Below are positions 9,341 to 43,210 of a DNA stretch of 64,000 nt, piece by piece. The position numbers were made by a program, and so were the translations under genes. The notes under the pieces were generated by a model. That model was not told the DNA's origin and searched no databases. It saw only the letters and a program-made list of their open reading frames with translations. Position 1 is the stretch's first letter. The number at the start of each line of letters is the position of its first letter. The stretch lies in assembly GCA_018001695.1 (NCBI GenBank), contig JAGNHN010000001.1, positions 8,226 through 72,225 on the forward strand. Direction: 5' to 3'. Origin of the DNA: Lentimicrobiaceae bacterium (GTDB taxonomy: Bacteria > Bacteroidota > Bacteroidia > Bacteroidales > JAGNHN01).

Positions 9341-11602
9341 CTAAACAGCGGTACCTGCTTCCATACCAATGCGTTCAATGCGCTGCATTCCCTGAATCTT
9401 GCGTAAATGGGCGATGGTATCCTCAAGCTGTTGGGTTCCGGTGACCATAAACATGATGGTGGCATCACAGACCTCGCCAGTGCTGCTGAGATTGAAAGTC
9501 TTGATATTGAGCCCATACTGTCCCGTGATCACGGCAGCGATCTCGCTGATCAGCCCTGGCCTGTCGATGCTCCTCAGTTTCACCCCTGATAAAAACACAT
9601 CAGCATTGTTGCTCATCCAGTTCGTCTTGACGATCCTGTCACCGAAACGGGACATGAGCCTGACGGCTTCAGGACAATTGCTGCGATGCAAACGGGTCGG
9701 CTCACTGGGTGAGATGAATCCGACGATCTCATCCCCGGGAATCGGAAGGCAGCAAGGGGAGACATCAAAAGAGGAACTGGCTTTACTTCCTTCAATCAAA
9801 AAGTCGCCCTTGTTCTTTTTGATTGTGTCTTCTACTTCTTCTGTCAGGCTTTTACCGGGCTTACTCTGTCTGGTAAAGGGGCGGCTGATCTTCCTGAACC
9901 AGTTGTTTTTTTCCGGATTTCCGAAATACTCCCTGACTTCTTTCATTCCCAGAAGATCATGGGCAAAGTCGAAATACAGGTCGATCAGGTTCGTCCGTCC
10001 GGTATACCGTTGTATTTGAATGATGACCGGACGTGAAGGTTCGATACTAAGCTGGGCCAGGATGCGCTCAAGCTTATCTTTACCTGCATCAAAATACACC
10101 TGACGATCGTCTTTCAGTGCTGATTTGATATATGAGATGGCTTTGGCTGTGCGGACGAATTTCAGCCACTCTGCTTTGGGTTTTTGCTTGCGCGAGGTGA
10201 TGATCTCCACCTGATCTCCGGTCCTGAGGACATGGCTCAACGGAACCAGTTTCAGGTTCACCTTGGCAGCTATGGCGGTATTTCCAATCTCAGAATGGAT
10301 ATGATAGGCAAAATCAAGAGCGGTAGATCCACCGGGTATGGTTTTCATATCCCCCTTAGGGGTGAATATAAAAATCTCATCATGAAACAGATTGAGCTTG
10401 AAATCACTCAGGAAATCCAGCGCATCCTCCTCCGTATTCCCTTCCAGCAGCTCCCTGACCCGGGCCAGCCAGTCATCCAGCCCGCTCTCACTACCGTTGT
10501 CCTTGTATTTCCAATGGGCAGCATATCCTTTTTCAGCGATCTCATCCATACGGCGGGTCCGGATCTGCACCTCCACCCATTTTCCGGTATGGCTCATCAG
10601 TGTAGCATGCAGGGCTTCGTATCCATTGGATTTCGGAAAGGCGATCCAGTCACGAAGCCGGTCCAGGTTGGGCCTGTAGAAATCCGTAATGATGGAATAC
10701 ACACGCCAGCAATCGGTTTTCTCCTTTGCAAGCGGGGATTCTATGATGATGCGTATGGCAAAGAGATCATATACCTCCTCGAAGGGGATCTCCTTTTTGC
10801 GCATTTTATGCCAGATACTATAAATGGATTTGGTTCTGCCAAAGATCTCATAAGGAATACCCTGATCGGTAAGTGCCCGGCGGATCGGATGGATGAACTC
10901 TTCTATAAAGGCATTCCTTTCCTCTTCAGATTCCTTCAGCTTCTGAGAAACAGTACGATATATCTCAGGCTCCATATACTTCAGGGCCAGATCCTCCAGT
11001 TCACTTTTGATGCTGAACAAGCCCAGCCGGTGGGCCAGGGGTGCATAGAGATAGGTGGTCTCGGAAGCAATCTTAAGCTGCTTGGCCGGCGACATGGCAT
11101 CCAGGGTGCGCATATTGTGCAGGCGGTCTGCAAGCTTGATTAGGATCACGCGGACATCATCCGACAAGGTCAGCAGCATCTTCTTATAGTTCTCTGCCTG
11201 TGCCGATTCAGATGTGAAATCGAAGATGCCCTTGATCTTGGTCAGGCCATCAATGATCTTTGCCACCTTCTCACCGAACAAATCCTCAATATCAGCCAGG
11301 GTGTAATCAGTATCTTCGACCACATCGTGCAGGAGTGCACAAATGATCGAAGTGGTACCCAGACCGATCTCCGAGGCGACGATATGTGCTACCTCCAGCG
11401 GATGGTAAATGTAAGGCTCCCCACTTTTACGCCGCATATCCTTATGCGCTTCCACAGCCAGGTTCAGGGCTTTGCGTACAAGCTGCTGCTCCTTCTTATC
11501 CTTGGGAAACCGCCAGGCACGCAGCAGCAGGGCATATCGCTTCAGAATGGCGATGCGTTCCTCCCTGAGATCAAACTGTTTGTGGAGCCCCGACTCTGGC
11601 AT
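9341..11602 (-). CDS. relA: Bifunctional (p)ppGpp synthetase/hydrolase (RelA/SpoT homolog)
   Basis: 753 aa. It has an HD hydrolase motif (LLHDVVEDT), a synthetase region (DLFAIRIII...GYEALHATL), then TGS- and ACT-like C-terminal regions. Confidence 0.95.
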   Translation of the reverse strand: MPESGLHKQFDLREERIAILKRYALLLRAWRFPKDKKEQQLVRKALNLAVEAHKDMRRKSGEPYIYHPLEVAHIVASEIGLGTTSIICALLHDVVEDTDYTLADIEDLFGEKVAKIIDGLTKIKGIFDFTSESAQAENYKKMLLTLSDDVRVILIKLADRLHNMRTLDAMSPAKQLKIASETTYLYAPLAHRLGLFSIKSELEDLALKYMEPEIYRTVSQKLKESEEERNAFIEEFIHPIRRALTDQGIPYEIFGRTKSIYSIWHKMRKKEIPFEEVYDLFAIRIIIESPLAKEKTDCWRVYSIITDFYRPNLDRLRDWIAFPKSNGYEALHATLMSHTGKWVEVQIRTRRMDEIAEKGYAAHWKYKDNGSESGLDDWLARVRELLEGNTEEDALDFLSDFKLNLFHDEIFIFTPKGDMKTIPGGSTALDFAYHIHSEIGNTAIAAKVNLKLVPLSHVLRTGDQVEIITSRKQKPKAEWLKFVRTAKAISYIKSALKDDRQVYFDAGKDKLERILAQLSIEPSRPVIIQIQRYTGRTNLIDLYFDFAHDLLGMKEVREYFGNPEKNNWFRKISRPFTRQSKPGKSLTEEVEDTIKKNKGDFLIEGSKASSSFDVSPCCLPIPGDEIVGFISPSEPTRLHRSNCPEAVRLMSRFGDRIVKTNWMSNNADVFLSGVKLRSIDRPGLISEIAAVITGQYGLNIKTFNLSSTGEVCDATIMFMVTGTQQLEDTIAHLRKIQGMQRIERIGMEAGTAV

Positions 11603-39949: not shown

Positions 39950-41230
39950 TTAAACAACCGGAAGGCTGATCTTGTTGAATCCGGTATAGGGAATCAGCAC
40001 TTCAGGTATCCGGATGTGGTCTTCCTCCTGGTAGTTTTCCAGCAGGGCGGCCACAATACGCGGTAACGCCAGCGCGCTGCCATTTAGTGTATGCGCCAGG
40101 CGTGTTTTGCCGTCCTTCCCCTTAAACCGGAGTTTCATCCTGTTGGCCTGGAAGGTCTGGAAATTCGATACGGAGCTGACCTCCAGCCAACGTCCCTGGC
40201 CGGCGGCCCATACTTCAAGGTCATAGGTCTTGGAAGAGGCAAAGCTCATGTCGCCCCCACAGAGGTTCAGGATGCGGAAAGGCAGGCCCAGCAGGCGCAA
40301 CAATCCGGCGACATGGTCTTTCATTTCTTCCAACGCTGTCCAGCTGTGGTCGGGATGTTGTATCTGCACGATTTCCACTTTATCGAACTGATGCAGGCGG
40401 TTGAGACCCCTGACATCCTTGCCATATGATCCTGCCTCACGCCTGAAGCAGCTGGAATAAGCCACATTTCGTATTGGAAGCTGACCCTCCTCCAGTATCA
40501 TATCGCGGTAAAAATTCGTCACTGGCACCTCAGCCGTTGGGATAAGGTATAGATCATCAACACCGACATGGTACATCTGACCTTCCTTGTCGGGAAGCTG
40601 CCCGGTGCCGAAACCGCTATCTGCATTTACAAGCAGCGGTGGTTGGTACTCCAGATAACCTGCGGCAACAGCCTTGTCGAGGAAGAAATTGATCAGGGCG
40701 CGTTGCAGCCTGGCTCCCTGGCCCCGGTATACCGGAAATCCGGCACCGGTGATCTTGCTTCCCAGATCGAAATCGATGATCTGGTAACGTGATGTCAGCT
40801 CCCAATGAGGCTTAAGTCCCTGTGGATCACGATGTGCCCCTTCCTGCAGCACGATGGCATTGTCTTCGGCACTGCGTCCTTCGGGGACACTGGTATGGGG
40901 GATATTGGGAATTTCCGTCAATATCTGCTGCTGTTCCGCGGTGATCTTGTCGAGCAGTTCGCTGAATTCCCTGGATTCTTTTTTATTCTCCGCCATCCTG
41001 GCTTTGATGCCTTCGGCTTCAGAGGATTTCCCCTGTTTGATCAGATCTCCGATCTGACGGGAGAGCTCCTTGCCTTCTGACAGCCTGTCATCCTGTTCTT
41101 TCTGGGTCCGGCGCCGCTGCTCATCCAGTTCGATGATCCGGTCAACCAGTCCAGGATCTCTGAAATACTTCTTCTTCAGGCCTTCTTTGATCATCTCAGG
41201 GTTTTCCCTGATCATGGCTATCTCGAGCAT
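39950..41230 (-). CDS. serS: Seryl-tRNA synthetase
   Basis: 426 aa. Starts MLEIAMIRENPE and has class-II motifs (CFRREAGS...). The start at 41230 is supported by a TAATTTTG box 17 nt upstream. A terminator hairpin lies inside the longer track ORF. Confidence 0.96.
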   Translation of the reverse strand: MLEIAMIRENPEMIKEGLKKKYFRDPGLVDRIIELDEQRRRTQKEQDDRLSEGKELSRQIGDLIKQGKSSEAEGIKARMAENKKESREFSELLDKITAEQQQILTEIPNIPHTSVPEGRSAEDNAIVLQEGAHRDPQGLKPHWELTSRYQIIDFDLGSKITGAGFPVYRGQGARLQRALINFFLDKAVAAGYLEYQPPLLVNADSGFGTGQLPDKEGQMYHVGVDDLYLIPTAEVPVTNFYRDMILEEGQLPIRNVAYSSCFRREAGSYGKDVRGLNRLHQFDKVEIVQIQHPDHSWTALEEMKDHVAGLLRLLGLPFRILNLCGGDMSFASSKTYDLEVWAAGQGRWLEVSSVSNFQTFQANRMKLRFKGKDGKTRLAHTLNGSALALPRIVAALLENYQEEDHIRIPEVLIPYTGFNKISLPVV

Positions 41231-41247
41231 ATTGTCAATTTTTTGCG

Positions 41248-41255
41248 CAAAATTA
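41248..41255 (-). promoter_or_regulatory. -7 box (TAATTTTG) upstream of serS
   Basis: Exact match, 17 nt upstream of the ATG at 41230 and just downstream of the rpmA terminator. Confidence 0.5.
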
Positions 41256-41265
41256 GCAGGTATAT

Positions 41266-41300
41266 AAAACAAAAAGTCTCCCGTCATCTTGGCGGGAGAC
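41266..41300 (-). terminator. Rho-independent terminator after rpmA
   Basis: On the minus strand the sequence reads GTCTCCCGccaagatgaCGGGAGACtttttgtttt. It lies between the rpmA stop (41341) and the serS start (41230). Confidence 0.75.
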
Positions 41301-41340
41301 ATAAAATCTTCAGACAGGTGTAGCCGTTCGGGGCTGTTGA

Positions 41341-41610
41341 TCAGCCTTCCTGTTTGTCCGCCGGAATGACGCTGACATAGGATCTGTCATTGCTGCGGCG
41401 ACGGAATTCCACCACGCCATCGGAGAGGGCAAACAAGGAATGATCCTTGCCCATACCTACGTTAATGCCCGGATAGTGGCGGGTACCTCTTTGACGCACG
41501 ATGATATTCCCTGCCCTGGCCAGTTGGCCACCATATATTTTTACGCCCAGACGTTTACTTTCTGATTCGCGACCGTTGCTTGAACTACCAGCACCTTTTT
41601 TATGAGCCAT
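41341..41610 (-). CDS. rpmA: 50S ribosomal protein L27
   Basis: 89 aa, [24 protein letters not shown]... Confidence 0.97.
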
Positions 41611-41636: not shown

Positions 41637-42008
41637 TTATTCGGCAGGGGTTTCAACGGCAGGGGTTTCAACGGCAACTTTCTTGCTGCGTCCTGCTTTG
41701 GCGGAGATCTCTTCGATATGGATATGGGTAAGATCCTGGCGGTGGCCATTGGATTTCTGATATCCTTTGCGGCGTTTCTTCTTGAAAACGATCACCTTAT
41801 CGCCACGCATATGCTTCAGGACCGTCGCCTTAACACTGGCGCCGTCGATCAGGGGTGTCCCAATCGTCACCTTGCCATCATTGTCAATCAACATGACTTT
41901 GTCGAAACTCATGCTGCTGCCTTCTTCAGCCTGCAGGCGGTGCACATAGATCTTCTGATCCTTCTGAACTTTGAACTGCTGGCCTGCAATGTCAACTATT
42001 GCGTACAT
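41637..42008 (-). CDS. rplU: 50S ribosomal protein L21 (with short repetitive C-terminal tail)
   Basis: 123 aa. Starts MYAIVDIAGQQFKV. The C-terminal tail ...VAVETPAVETPAE is encoded by a 15-nt tandem duplication. Confidence 0.95.
   Translation of the reverse strand: MYAIVDIAGQQFKVQKDQKIYVHRLQAEEGSSMSFDKVMLIDNDGKVTIGTPLIDGASVKATVLKHMRGDKVIVFKKKRRKGYQKSNGHRQDLTHIHIEEISAKAGRSKKVAVETPAVETPAE
41643..41672 (-). repeat. 15-nt perfect tandem duplication inside the rplU 3' end
   Basis: The unit ggcaggggtttcaac occurs twice in tandem and encodes AVETP-AVETP in the L21 tail. Confidence 0.9.
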
Positions 42009-42041
42009 AATGTATATGCTTTACCTCCAAATTTGGGCTTG

Positions 42042-42049
42042 CAAAGATA
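42042..42049 (-). promoter_or_regulatory. -7 box (TATCTTTG) upstream of rplU-rpmA
   Basis: Exact match, 33 nt upstream of the ATG at 42008. Confidence 0.45.
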
Positions 42050-42106
42050 TTGAAATTATTATTCATACCAAGCCATGGCAGAATTTTTCTTCCAAAATCC
42101 CGCGAT

Positions 42107-42274
42107 CAGTTCTCAGCGAACAGTTGGCAGCAATCAGTTTTCAGCGAACAGTTCTCAGCGATCATTTGTCAGTTGACAGCCATCAATTGACAGCCATCAG
42201 CAGTCTCTGAAAACTGAATACTGTCATCTGCTAACTGAATCATTCGTAATTCGTCATTCGTCATTCCTAATTAA
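42107..42274. repeat. 24 in-register heptanucleotide units (three subfamilies: CAGnnnn x14, nnCTGnn x5, TnATTCn x5)
   Basis: Read directly in steps of 7 from 42107, with no register break over 168 bp. The tract is intergenic, between the DMT gene stop and the rplU -7 box. Confidence 0.85.
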
Positions 42275-43210
42275 CTAAGGGTTTTCTGTTAAACGTCTTT
42301 TCGCCAGAAATCCCCGGAGCAGGGCGATGGGGTTGTGGATGTTGGAAAGTGCAACCCCCAGCAGGATGAGTATGATCCAGAAAATGTACTGGATACGGAA
42401 TACCTCCCCGTCGACAATGCCCCAAAGCACCGCCACCACCGGCATCAGATAGGTTACAGAAGAAGCAAACAAGGGCGTGGTCATGTGGATCAGCTTGTTA
42501 TAGGCCATCAGCGACAGGCCTGTACCCACCATCCCAAGGATGGCCACGATGAGAATACCCTGCCAGATATCCGGGCGGCTGCTGACGTGATCCAGAAAAG
42601 GCGTGCATGTCAGCAGGCCTGTCAATACCGGTGGCCCTACAAGAAAAAAGGCCAGCGACGTGATGGTCACCGGGTTGAGGTGCATGAGCTTGCTCTTGAT
42701 CACGTTGGCGTTGACGGCATAGAACAGGGTAGCCAGGATGATGTAAGCGGCATAGCCAACATTGAAACGGAAGGATGCTTCTCCACTGACGCTGATCAGC
42801 CCAACGGCACCGGTTAGTCCGATAAACACCCCAGCTATCTGCATAATCCCTGCAGGTCGCCTGAAGAATGCCAGGCCCAGCAACATGGTAAATAAAGGGG
42901 TGAGGCTGTTCAGCATACCCGCCAACGAGCTGTCGATGCCACGCTGCGCCAGTGGGAATAGAAATGAAGGTATCGTGCTACCGATGAACCCTGAAATGGC
43001 CAGAAAGAGCCAGGTGCTACGGTCGAAGCGCCGGATACGCTTGATGGCATAGGGCAGTAGAAGCAGCCAGGCCATGACCATGCGTAAGCCGCCCACTTCG
43101 ATGGCATCGAAATACAGCAGGGCTTTTTTGATAAGGATAAAGGAGCTCCCCCATATCAGCATCAGGCTGAACAGGATAAACCAGGCCAGGGGGACCTCTT
43201 TACGTGCCAT
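42275..43210 (-). CDS. DMT-superfamily (EamA) transporter
   Basis: 311 aa with about 10 hydrophobic helices arranged as two EamA-like halves. Confidence 0.85.
   Translation of the reverse strand: MARKEVPLAWFILFSLMLIWGSSFILIKKALLYFDAIEVGGLRMVMAWLLLLPYAIKRIRRFDRSTWLFLAISGFIGSTIPSFLFPLAQRGIDSSLAGMLNSLTPLFTMLLGLAFFRRPAGIMQIAGVFIGLTGAVGLISVSGEASFRFNVGYAAYIILATLFYAVNANVIKSKLMHLNPVTITSLAFFLVGPPVLTGLLTCTPFLDHVSSRPDIWQGILIVAILGMVGTGLSLMAYNKLIHMTTPLFASSVTYLMPVVAVLWGIVDGEVFRIQYIFWIILILLGVALSNIHNPIALLRGFLAKRRLTENP

Follow-up and report, generated by a model that had tools for sequence, protein, structure and literature searches.

The tract analysed here is a 168-bp run of heptanucleotide units at positions 42107-42274 of a 64-kb stretch of a Lentimicrobiaceae genome (contig JAGNHN010000001.1 of assembly GCA_018001695.1; the whole stretch is referred to as the window), and it lies beside a drug/metabolite transporter (DMT) gene and the ribosomal-protein genes rplU and rpmA. 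As a preliminary description of the same DNA had stated, the tract takes up the spacer, reaching from the DMT stop codon to a point some 60 bp upstream of the rplU -7 box; all the genes concerned are on the minus strand:

39950-41302, minus strand: serS
41341-41610, minus strand: rpmA
41637-42008, minus strand: rplU
42042-42049, minus strand: putative Bacteroidota -7 box TATCTTTG of rplU, from sequence reading, kept in the related loci L091 and L092
42107-42274: the heptanucleotide tract
42275-43210, minus strand: EamA/DMT transporter gene, stop codon at 42275-42277

The tract is situated about 100 nt upstream of the rplU start codon, and TATCTTTG is transcriptionally downstream of it; the role of this box as the rplU promoter would follow from its agreement with the known TAnnTTTG consensus. 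A sigma-70 promoter scan near the tract was empty, that model not being applicable to Bacteroidota. In line with the preliminary description, the tract is non-coding: it lies between genes, past the DMT stop codon and short of the rplU promoter, and its length alleles differ by 56 nt, which is not a multiple of three. We consider it likely that this tract is the long, 24-unit allele of one copy of a modular heptanucleotide family dispersed in the intergenic DNA of this Lentimicrobiaceae species, of the same kind as the TAACTGA direct repeats and the short tandemly repeated repetitive (STRR) heptanucleotides, and it probably does not regulate rplU.

Read in sevens from 42107, the tract gave the same 24 in-register units as had been described before. 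The period-7 autocorrelation against shuffled controls, proposed earlier as a check, returned a strong signal: the lag-7 identity was 0.516, whereas 2000 dinucleotide-preserving shuffles averaged 0.257 ± 0.036 and reached 0.385 at most (z = 7.1), the lag-14 identity was stronger (0.604, z = 9.4), and lags 21 and 28 were high too. Tandem Repeats Finder reported periods of 14 and 28 at 42102-42172 and a period of 7 at 42242-42272, with 77-87% matches. Neither a second tract of this type nor a second family copy was found elsewhere in the 64-kb window. The units are contiguous and free of spacers, which agrees with the earlier judgement that the tract is not an array of clustered regularly interspaced short palindromic repeats (CRISPR), and no exact heptamer occurs three times in tandem, as a long simple sequence repeat in the strict sense would require. 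The tract and its margins can be divided as follows:

42096-42106, plus strand: left junction AATCCCGCGAT, which by eye appears similar to the TTTCCCAGCGAT that precedes module A in paralogs
42107-42204, plus strand: module A, 14 units CAGTTnn / CAGCnnn (Tandem Repeats Finder, unit reading and autocorrelation)
42205-42239, plus strand: module B, five inverted A-type units (inverted-repeat search)
42240-42267, plus strand: module C, TCATTCG TAATTCG TCATTCG TCATTCC, that is, ATTCGTN units (Tandem Repeats Finder)
42261-42277, plus strand: module D remnant ATTCCTAATTAACTA, a weak similarity from by-eye comparison with the L220 and L221 copies

Module A, the CAG block formerly termed subfamily 1, is a 14/28-nt higher-order repeat in which CAGTTnn alternates with CAGCnnn; in the sense orientation of DMT and rplU (minus strand) it reads nAACTGn / nnnGCTG, with TAACTGA-like units. 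The nnCTGnn units formerly termed subfamily 2 are indeed present at 42205-42239 but do not form a separate subfamily, being the reverse complement of CAGnnnn units (CAGTTAG CAGATGA CAGTATT CAGTTTT CAGAG), and they contain the sole exact TAACTGA of the tract, at 42232-42238. The module D remnant ATTCCTAATTAACTA resembles the (CCTAATY)n-ACTAATG end of paralogs and overlaps the DMT stop codon. Similarity to paralogs accordingly extends past the unit array, to about 42096 on one side and across the DMT stop codon on the other, and likeness to the array-free spacer of L091 restarts, by eye, at about 42085-42095. A 25-nt direct repeat (72% identical) flanks the tract at 42085-42109 and 42298-42322, the latter inside the DMT coding region, and is probably a chance occurrence. 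The C-terminal tails of DMT homologs are too variable to bear on a truncation of the gene by the element.

A metagenome scan with CAGTTNNCAGCNNNCAGTTNNCAGC, taken together with follow-up of the matches listed, showed that no fewer than four other intergenic loci of the species contain these units, for the most part with their modules in the order seen here. These family loci (L155 with three arrays, L174/L217-L222, L221, L219 and L220) have A, C and D units in common with the window; copies follow both members of a CHU_C tandem pair and a GH20 gene, and others lie downstream of a tRNA gene and upstream of a DoxX-like open reading frame (ORF). Their assignment to the same species relies on shared samples, coverage and tetranucleotide composition. 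Two of the CAGTTNNCAGCNNNCAGTTNNCAGC matches carried the tetranucleotide signature of the window (correlations of 0.85 and 0.81; 3-kb pieces of the window itself reached 0.85, and other Bacteroidota averaged 0.39), and both came from Joint Genome Institute (JGI) samples that also contain this organism. One family locus was in the same European Nucleotide Archive (ENA) assembly as the DMT contig (ERZ15185055), at a coverage of 2.7x vs 2.9x, and the two lineage variants of the GH20 locus, with arrays differing by 14 nt in length, came from the samples in which the two rplU lineages occur.

The similarity between copies goes beyond single units. The module order is A (CAGTTnn/CAGCGAn), C (ATTCGTN), ATTCCTAAT, and where all modules are present it runs A, C, TAATTACCTGATT, D (CCTAATY)n; C units follow module A at L155 (three arrays), L219, L220, L221 and L217, and the copy after the second CHU_C gene consists of A units only. 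The module A units CAGTTGG CAGCGAA, CAGTTGA, CAGCGAT, CAGCCAT, CAGCAAT and CAGTTTT recur identically at other loci of the species. The best pairwise match, between window 42177-42273 and L220 10027-10123, was 90.7% identical over 97 nt (E = 1e-28) and included the inverted block. Length differences within the family were of whole units, amounting to 56 nt (28 + 28), 14 nt and 21 nt. The spacer that follows the tRNA gene (L219 9444-9530) measured 637 bp in L219 (9378-10015) vs 1131 bp including an N gap in L220 (9318-10449), the difference being extra tandem copies of the composite heptamer element. Contigs repeatedly began or ended inside family arrays, and in three cases the first unit included the TGA stop codon of the upstream gene.

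Several further features were observed in the paralogs. Each of the tandem CHU_C genes (L217 1641-3326 and 4356-6041; also L221 1-300) is followed by an array with TGATCAG as its first unit, the TGA being the stop codon, and one of these two arrays includes a GC-rich core that the other lacks. This core of about 125 nt is conserved between arrays at three loci (L219 9700-9855, L221 118-275 and L155 185-325, the last on the reverse strand). Within it are a small ACCCCGNAGGGGT hairpin and a variable loop enclosed by a 10-bp CCCCCTCCCA/TGGGAGGGGG stem. The core had no Rfam match and is not in the window. In paralogs, CAGCGAT followed by CAG yields GATC every 7 or 14 nt (CAGCGATCAGCGATCAGCGATCAG; L220 9690-9730, L219 9850-9920), a spacing possibly linked to Dam-type methylation, and the window copy has two GATC sites only (42104, 42160).

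The identical DMT protein, which NCBI labels "Lentimicrobiaceae bacterium", was encoded on many metagenome contigs whose DNA was 94-99% identical to the window, and which are therefore conspecific. Five of the ten places listed (L001-L003, L006, L007) carried a short allele with exactly 56 bp, or 8 units, less and in register, a difference accounted for by two 28-nt steps between short repeats. Besides the window, two independent assemblies (L095, L096) carried the long allele, together with the window's 123-aa rplU; across about 13 assemblies there were two length alleles, each bound to a lineage (rplU of 123 or 124 aa). These lineages differ by one codon in the region of a perfect 15-bp tandem repeat, CGGCAGGGGTTTCAA (2.3 copies, 41642-41676), at the 3' end of rplU, which encodes the repeated ETPAV tail of L21. 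In L004, L005 and L008 the short allele is split by an IS3-family insertion sequence (IS) of about 1.46 kb, and the L009 and L010 contigs terminate inside the tract. Because the units repeat, the exact breakpoints given here are uncertain by a few bases:

42107-42134, plus strand: long-allele-only block 1, 28 nt (4 units), lacking in L001-L003, L006 and L007
42142-42169, plus strand: long-allele-only block 2, 28 nt (4 units), from allele comparison
42137-42139: position corresponding to the IS3-family insertion point, with a 3-bp target duplication AAC/GTT
L004 9997-11455, L005 7504-8962 and L008 11045-11147 (element start): IS copies with rve and HTH_Tnp_1 ORFs and TG...CA ends

No further copy of this IS was found among the loci collected; its position inside the tract recalls IS3-family elements whose targets are repetitive extragenic palindromic (REP) sequences. 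The tract changes by whole units, slowly, with one allele per lineage, and such in-register length alleles among strains contradict the earlier opinion that its units are too degenerate for present-day slippage. The part of the tract shared by strains was identical in all of them, and the adjacent DMT gene differed by just 0.6%, so that this identity is uninformative on constraint.

The gene order Aldedh-DMT-rplU-rpmA-serS is retained in two relatives, whose spacers are conserved only over the promoter-proximal 60-70 bp. In the closer relative L091 (DMT 73% identical), the 239-bp spacer lacks period 7 (lag-7 identity 0.28). In the more distant L092/L093 (DMT 58% identical), the same spacer contains an unrelated, near-perfect array, (GGAACCT)6(AGAACAT)12 (coordinates 10970-11120, lag-7 identity 0.68), along with a separate GC-rich hairpin after the stop codon; unlike the window tract, the (AGAACAT)12 run of L092 qualifies as a strict long simple sequence repeat. 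The 21-kb L092/L093 locus holds at least four additional heptamer arrays with different units.

Heptanucleotide families of this kind have been recognized in other bacteria. The STRR of Calothrix and Nostoc are genome-specific, dispersed intergenic heptanucleotides, and two of the three classic units (CCCCAGT, CAACAGT) contain a CAGT core. The present family resembles them in being genome-specific, in occupying many intergenic sites and in its CAGT core; it differs in belonging to another phylum and in combining several unit families in a fixed order with an inverted block, whereas STRR are mostly single-unit runs. Mosaic dispersed repeats are also represented by the pneumococcal BOX element (boxA-boxB(n)-boxC) and by the bacterial interspersed mosaic elements (BIME) of enterobacteria, whose REP units are 20-40-nt palindromes. 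The likeness to these lies in modularity, multiple copies, intergenic or 3'-proximal location, a variable-copy internal module and the capacity to form hairpins; the sequences are unrelated and the units here are of 7 nt, so the comparison concerns possible working, not membership. No REP-like unit (a 20-40-nt palindrome) was visible in the window tract, and no search for REP-associated tyrosine transposase (RAYT) genes was made.

The closest published counterparts are the TAACTGA direct repeats reported from Beggiatoaceae, Thiocystis, 15 Cyanobacteria and 5 Bacteroidetes (MacGregor 2015, PMC4679880). In the present register, the complementary strand of (TAACTGA)n reads (CAGTTAT)n, which makes the A units members of the TAACTGA class, and CAGTTAT itself is present in paralogs within similarly intergenic 7-nt tandem arrays. 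That study described mixed heptamers, near-identical multi-locus assemblages in Elizabethkingia, strain indels in 7-nt steps, contigs ending in arrays, and absence from close relatives with the same gene order (PMC4679880), and all of these traits were seen in the window family too. The window tract departs from them in having no two tandem exact TAACTGA units, only one exact copy and one-mismatch variants that alternate with nnnGCTG (CAACTGA, AAACTGA and GAACTGA on the minus strand, spaced 14 nt); moreover, the Beggiatoaceae arrays mostly end a few bases from a start codon (PMC4679880), whereas this tract is about 100 nt away and upstream of the putative promoter. Heterogeneous GGGAATC arrays in Xanthomonas and GGGGA(T/C)T arrays in Nostoc, some forming inverted pairs, occur between the same genes in related species with highly variable length and sequence (Rehm et al. 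2015, PMC4692102); they share with the window tract imperfect units, intergenic location and inverted pairs able to form stem-loops, and the D-module units of paralogs (reverse complement GGGATTA) resemble theirs, but those arrays are G-rich and quadruplex-capable and the window copy has no GGG runs. Heptamers (class 7n3) were the sole simple repeat scored as over-represented in Bacteroidetes by Huang and Mrazek (PMC4060949, Table 2), and Mrazek (2007), as relayed in two of these papers (PMC4679880, PMC4692102), proposed that 7 nt corresponds to the DNA stretch held by the polymerase, favouring slippage. The statement in the preliminary description that no described element has this organisation therefore does not hold, given published heptanucleotide arrays that include mixed multi-locus assemblages in Bacteroidetes (PMC4679880, PMC4692102, PMC4060949). 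With 7-nt head-to-tail units, intergenic location, multiple loci and whole-unit length differences, the family is a dispersed heterogeneous heptanucleotide array; it belongs to an already described kind of repeat and is itself a further case.

As a background sample we used serS-centred loci of 80 diverse Bacteroidota among the matches listed (serS ≤64% identical), 1.33 Mb in total, and set aside lags in multiples of three, which reflect coding. At an identity threshold of 0.55, lag 7 gave 21 tracts, compared to 0-3 each for lags 4, 5, 8, 10, 11 and 13. Of 41 lag-7 tracts 37 were intergenic, although intergenic DNA makes up 10% of the sample (p ~1e-32). About 5% of spacers held a heptamer array, with clustering in particular genomes, and numerous arrays changed unit family in register. 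A tendency towards rplU, rpmA or serS that looked promising by eye was not significant in this sample (10/147 vs 26/550 spacers, p = 0.30). The search for further CAGnnnn tracts suggested earlier did find additional copies of the family, which sit after unrelated genes. Array examples (from L011-L090) are L080 7172-7439, L023 4722-4908, L013 9503-9648 and L028 9322-9477; some occupy an entire spacer up to the start codon, and in two genomes the spacer so occupied is that between rplU and rpmA. The array at L023 4722-4908 is a direct-plus-inverted hairpin (predicted fold z = -9 to -10.5), and arrays 2 and 4 of L023 have units in common.

Since the module B units are inverted CAGnnnn units, the tract could fold into a long imperfect structure:

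42113-42238: long imperfect hairpin or cruciform, arms 42113-42147 and 42204-42238, 77% complementary, with an inner stem around CAATTG at 42184

The predicted RNA fold reached -56.1 kcal/mol on the minus (sense) strand (z = -3.3) and -50.3 kcal/mol on the plus strand (z = -3.7), and the short allele kept a predicted fold of -33.3 kcal/mol (z = -3.0). A consensus scan of 41900-42400 for intrinsic terminators was empty, with no GC-rich hairpin followed directly by a T-run; the nearest T-run (ATTTTGG) lies about 10 nt beyond the hairpin base. In the window, Rfam 15 gave no match at the gathering score, only sub-threshold eukaryotic microRNA hairpins (E ≥ 0.02), and no tRNA was found in the tract region.

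If the tract is a family copy as proposed, its length would change by whole units through slipped-strand mispairing or unequal recombination between units, and sequence would be shared between loci by ectopic recombination or some other route of copying. The element would passively occupy the DMT-rplU spacer, itself dispensable, with any effect, such as that of a 3' hairpin on the DMT transcript, being incidental, and without dedicated control of rplU-rpmA. A decayed heptanucleotide microsatellite, one of the options considered earlier, comes nearest to this, except that simple decay in place does not fit a multi-locus family with shared modules and ongoing whole-unit change. The earlier suggestion of phased binding half-sites or bent upstream-activating DNA for the rplU-rpmA promoter can point to a tract that ends about 60 bp upstream of a conserved -7 box and to a different heptamer array at the same position in L092; we nevertheless regard such an activator as very unlikely, given that the L091 spacer has no array, that the L092 array is unrelated, that wild strains carry the 56-bp deletion allele as well as an IS that shifts 16 units 1.46 kb away, and that arrays beside rplU, rpmA and serS are not enriched. 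Paralogs, moreover, follow unrelated genes, and A/T runs of at least four bases number just two in the 168 bp, separated by 71 bp, which argues against a phased A-tract bend, as judged from reading the sequence. The tract can be considered dispensable for rplU because L091 lacks period 7, the array of L092 is unrelated and the IS splits the tract in three assemblies. A contingency locus, at which phase variation, through units being often gained and lost, would adjust the expression of DMT or rplU, has a precedent in the 7-bp repeats of Haemophilus influenzae hmw1A/hmw2A, which are perfect, hypermutable, positioned between promoter and coding sequence and graded in their effect on expression (PMC8262952). 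The tract shares with them a variable-number heptanucleotide array upstream of a gene, and its period, intergenic site and length alleles would be in keeping with such a role, but its units are degenerate, only two lineage-tied alleles were seen in about 13 assemblies, it lies upstream of the putative promoter and outside the interval between promoter and start codon, and the genes concerned are housekeeping ones, which makes phase variation scarcely credible here.

Two other explanations deserve more attention. Akin to the structured 3' UTR suggested earlier, the tract may provide a 3'-end RNA structure to the upstream gene, acting as a terminator, insulator or mRNA-stabilising hairpin in the manner of REP/BIME in enterobacteria, in which case heptamers would merely be how the hairpin is built. 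A sense-strand hairpin is predicted for both length alleles and its core survives in the IS-split allele, the tract begins at the DMT stop codon as three paralogs begin at the TGA of the upstream gene, and about 10 of 35 heptamer arrays of other Bacteroidota fold significantly (z < -2, down to -10). The majority of arrays elsewhere are unfolded, however, the array of L092 is unstructured (z = -1.2) and adjoins a separate GC-rich hairpin, the L091 spacer is array-free, the units of the paralog that follows the second CHU_C gene are all direct, and the window hairpin is not followed by a T-run, in keeping with the empty terminator scan; we therefore hold a selected 3'-end function to be rather unlikely. 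It is more doubtful that the family is a non-autonomous mobile element (a miniature inverted-repeat transposable element (MITE), REP or BOX-like) copied by a transposase or RAYT-like enzyme, with heptamer arrays as variable internal modules. The module order and non-repeat junctions such as CCTGATTATTTCCCAGCGAT common to copies at several loci, the foldable GC-rich core (about 125 nt) that separates arrays at three loci, and the presence or absence of the tract between related species would be consistent with mobility. By eye, neither terminal inverted repeats nor target-site duplications were seen at the ends of the small number of copies inspected, all from incomplete genomes; the core is missing from the window copy, the arrays flanking the core are both in direct orientation, and the only IS found, RAYT not having been searched for, is an insertion into the tract rather than an associated transposase.

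Several observations nonetheless weigh against a passive dispersed family. In the scaffolded metagenome-assembled genome that carries the best paralog, L220, an N gap adjoins the copy, and a misjoin is possible there; the evidence from modules A, C and D is independent of that copy. The sense-RNA hairpin (z about -3) retained by both alleles could mean a selected 3'-end function, and at three of the four other places with a known upstream gene, the copy starts at its TGA. An independent array in the same spacer of L092 could hint at a positional property; the chance of such a coincidence is about 5%, and as heptamer arrays occupy about that share of Bacteroidota spacers, it is no strong evidence for a special position. 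CAGTT-type arrays of many organisms, where they lie between co-directional genes, read CTG/AACTG on the sense strand 20 times vs 7 (p = 0.02, a tentative result from rough ORF calls), an orientation that the window tract shares and that pure neutrality does not predict. We give only slight credence to a broader view in which either a modular element made of arrays and the GC-rich foldable core of about 125 nt is actively copied between Lentimicrobiaceae sites, or one strand-biased mechanism duplicates 7 nt across phyla; in the cross-phylum version, arrays with the CAGT/ACTG core, phage-like contigs included, may arise from a sequence-specific nicking, priming or repair enzyme and not from polymerase slippage. 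Were this so, the 20 vs 7 orientation bias and the array starts at stop codons would be signatures of such a mechanism or of RNA-level selection.

Many bacteria have an excess of heptanucleotide repeats in their intergenic DNA. The present locus offers a clean natural example, with two length alleles, an IS-split allele, array-free and independently filled orthologous spacers, and same-genome paralogs, a set that makes it usable for measuring unit turnover and testing 3'-end effects. Heptamer arrays also explain assembly breaks at these spacers in this organism, and they caution that such tracts beside ribosomal-protein genes need not carry regulatory meaning. Of wider interest are the period of 7 itself and the recurrence of the CAGT/ACTG core.

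The recurrence of this core was evident well beyond the species. Among the matches listed, 87 (metagenome and viral) were readable with their flanks; most of these were true arrays from unrelated organisms, nine were stretches from viral contigs, and positions 7 nt ahead of the scan pattern read CAG in up to 65 of the 87. The distance of arrays to start codons was dropped as a measure, as the longest-ORF rule biases it. Arrays of the form (CAGTTNN CAGCNNN)n were widespread in unrelated environmental organisms (L097-L176) and also present in phage-like contigs (L229-L237; for instance, L236 12717-12769 and L235 1809-1880), and by rough ORF calls the arrays often abut stop codons. A group of soil sequences (L103/L139/L168/L170/L176) shares CAGTTGG CAGCCGT CAGTTGG CAGC followed by the inverted AACTGCAAACTGCC.

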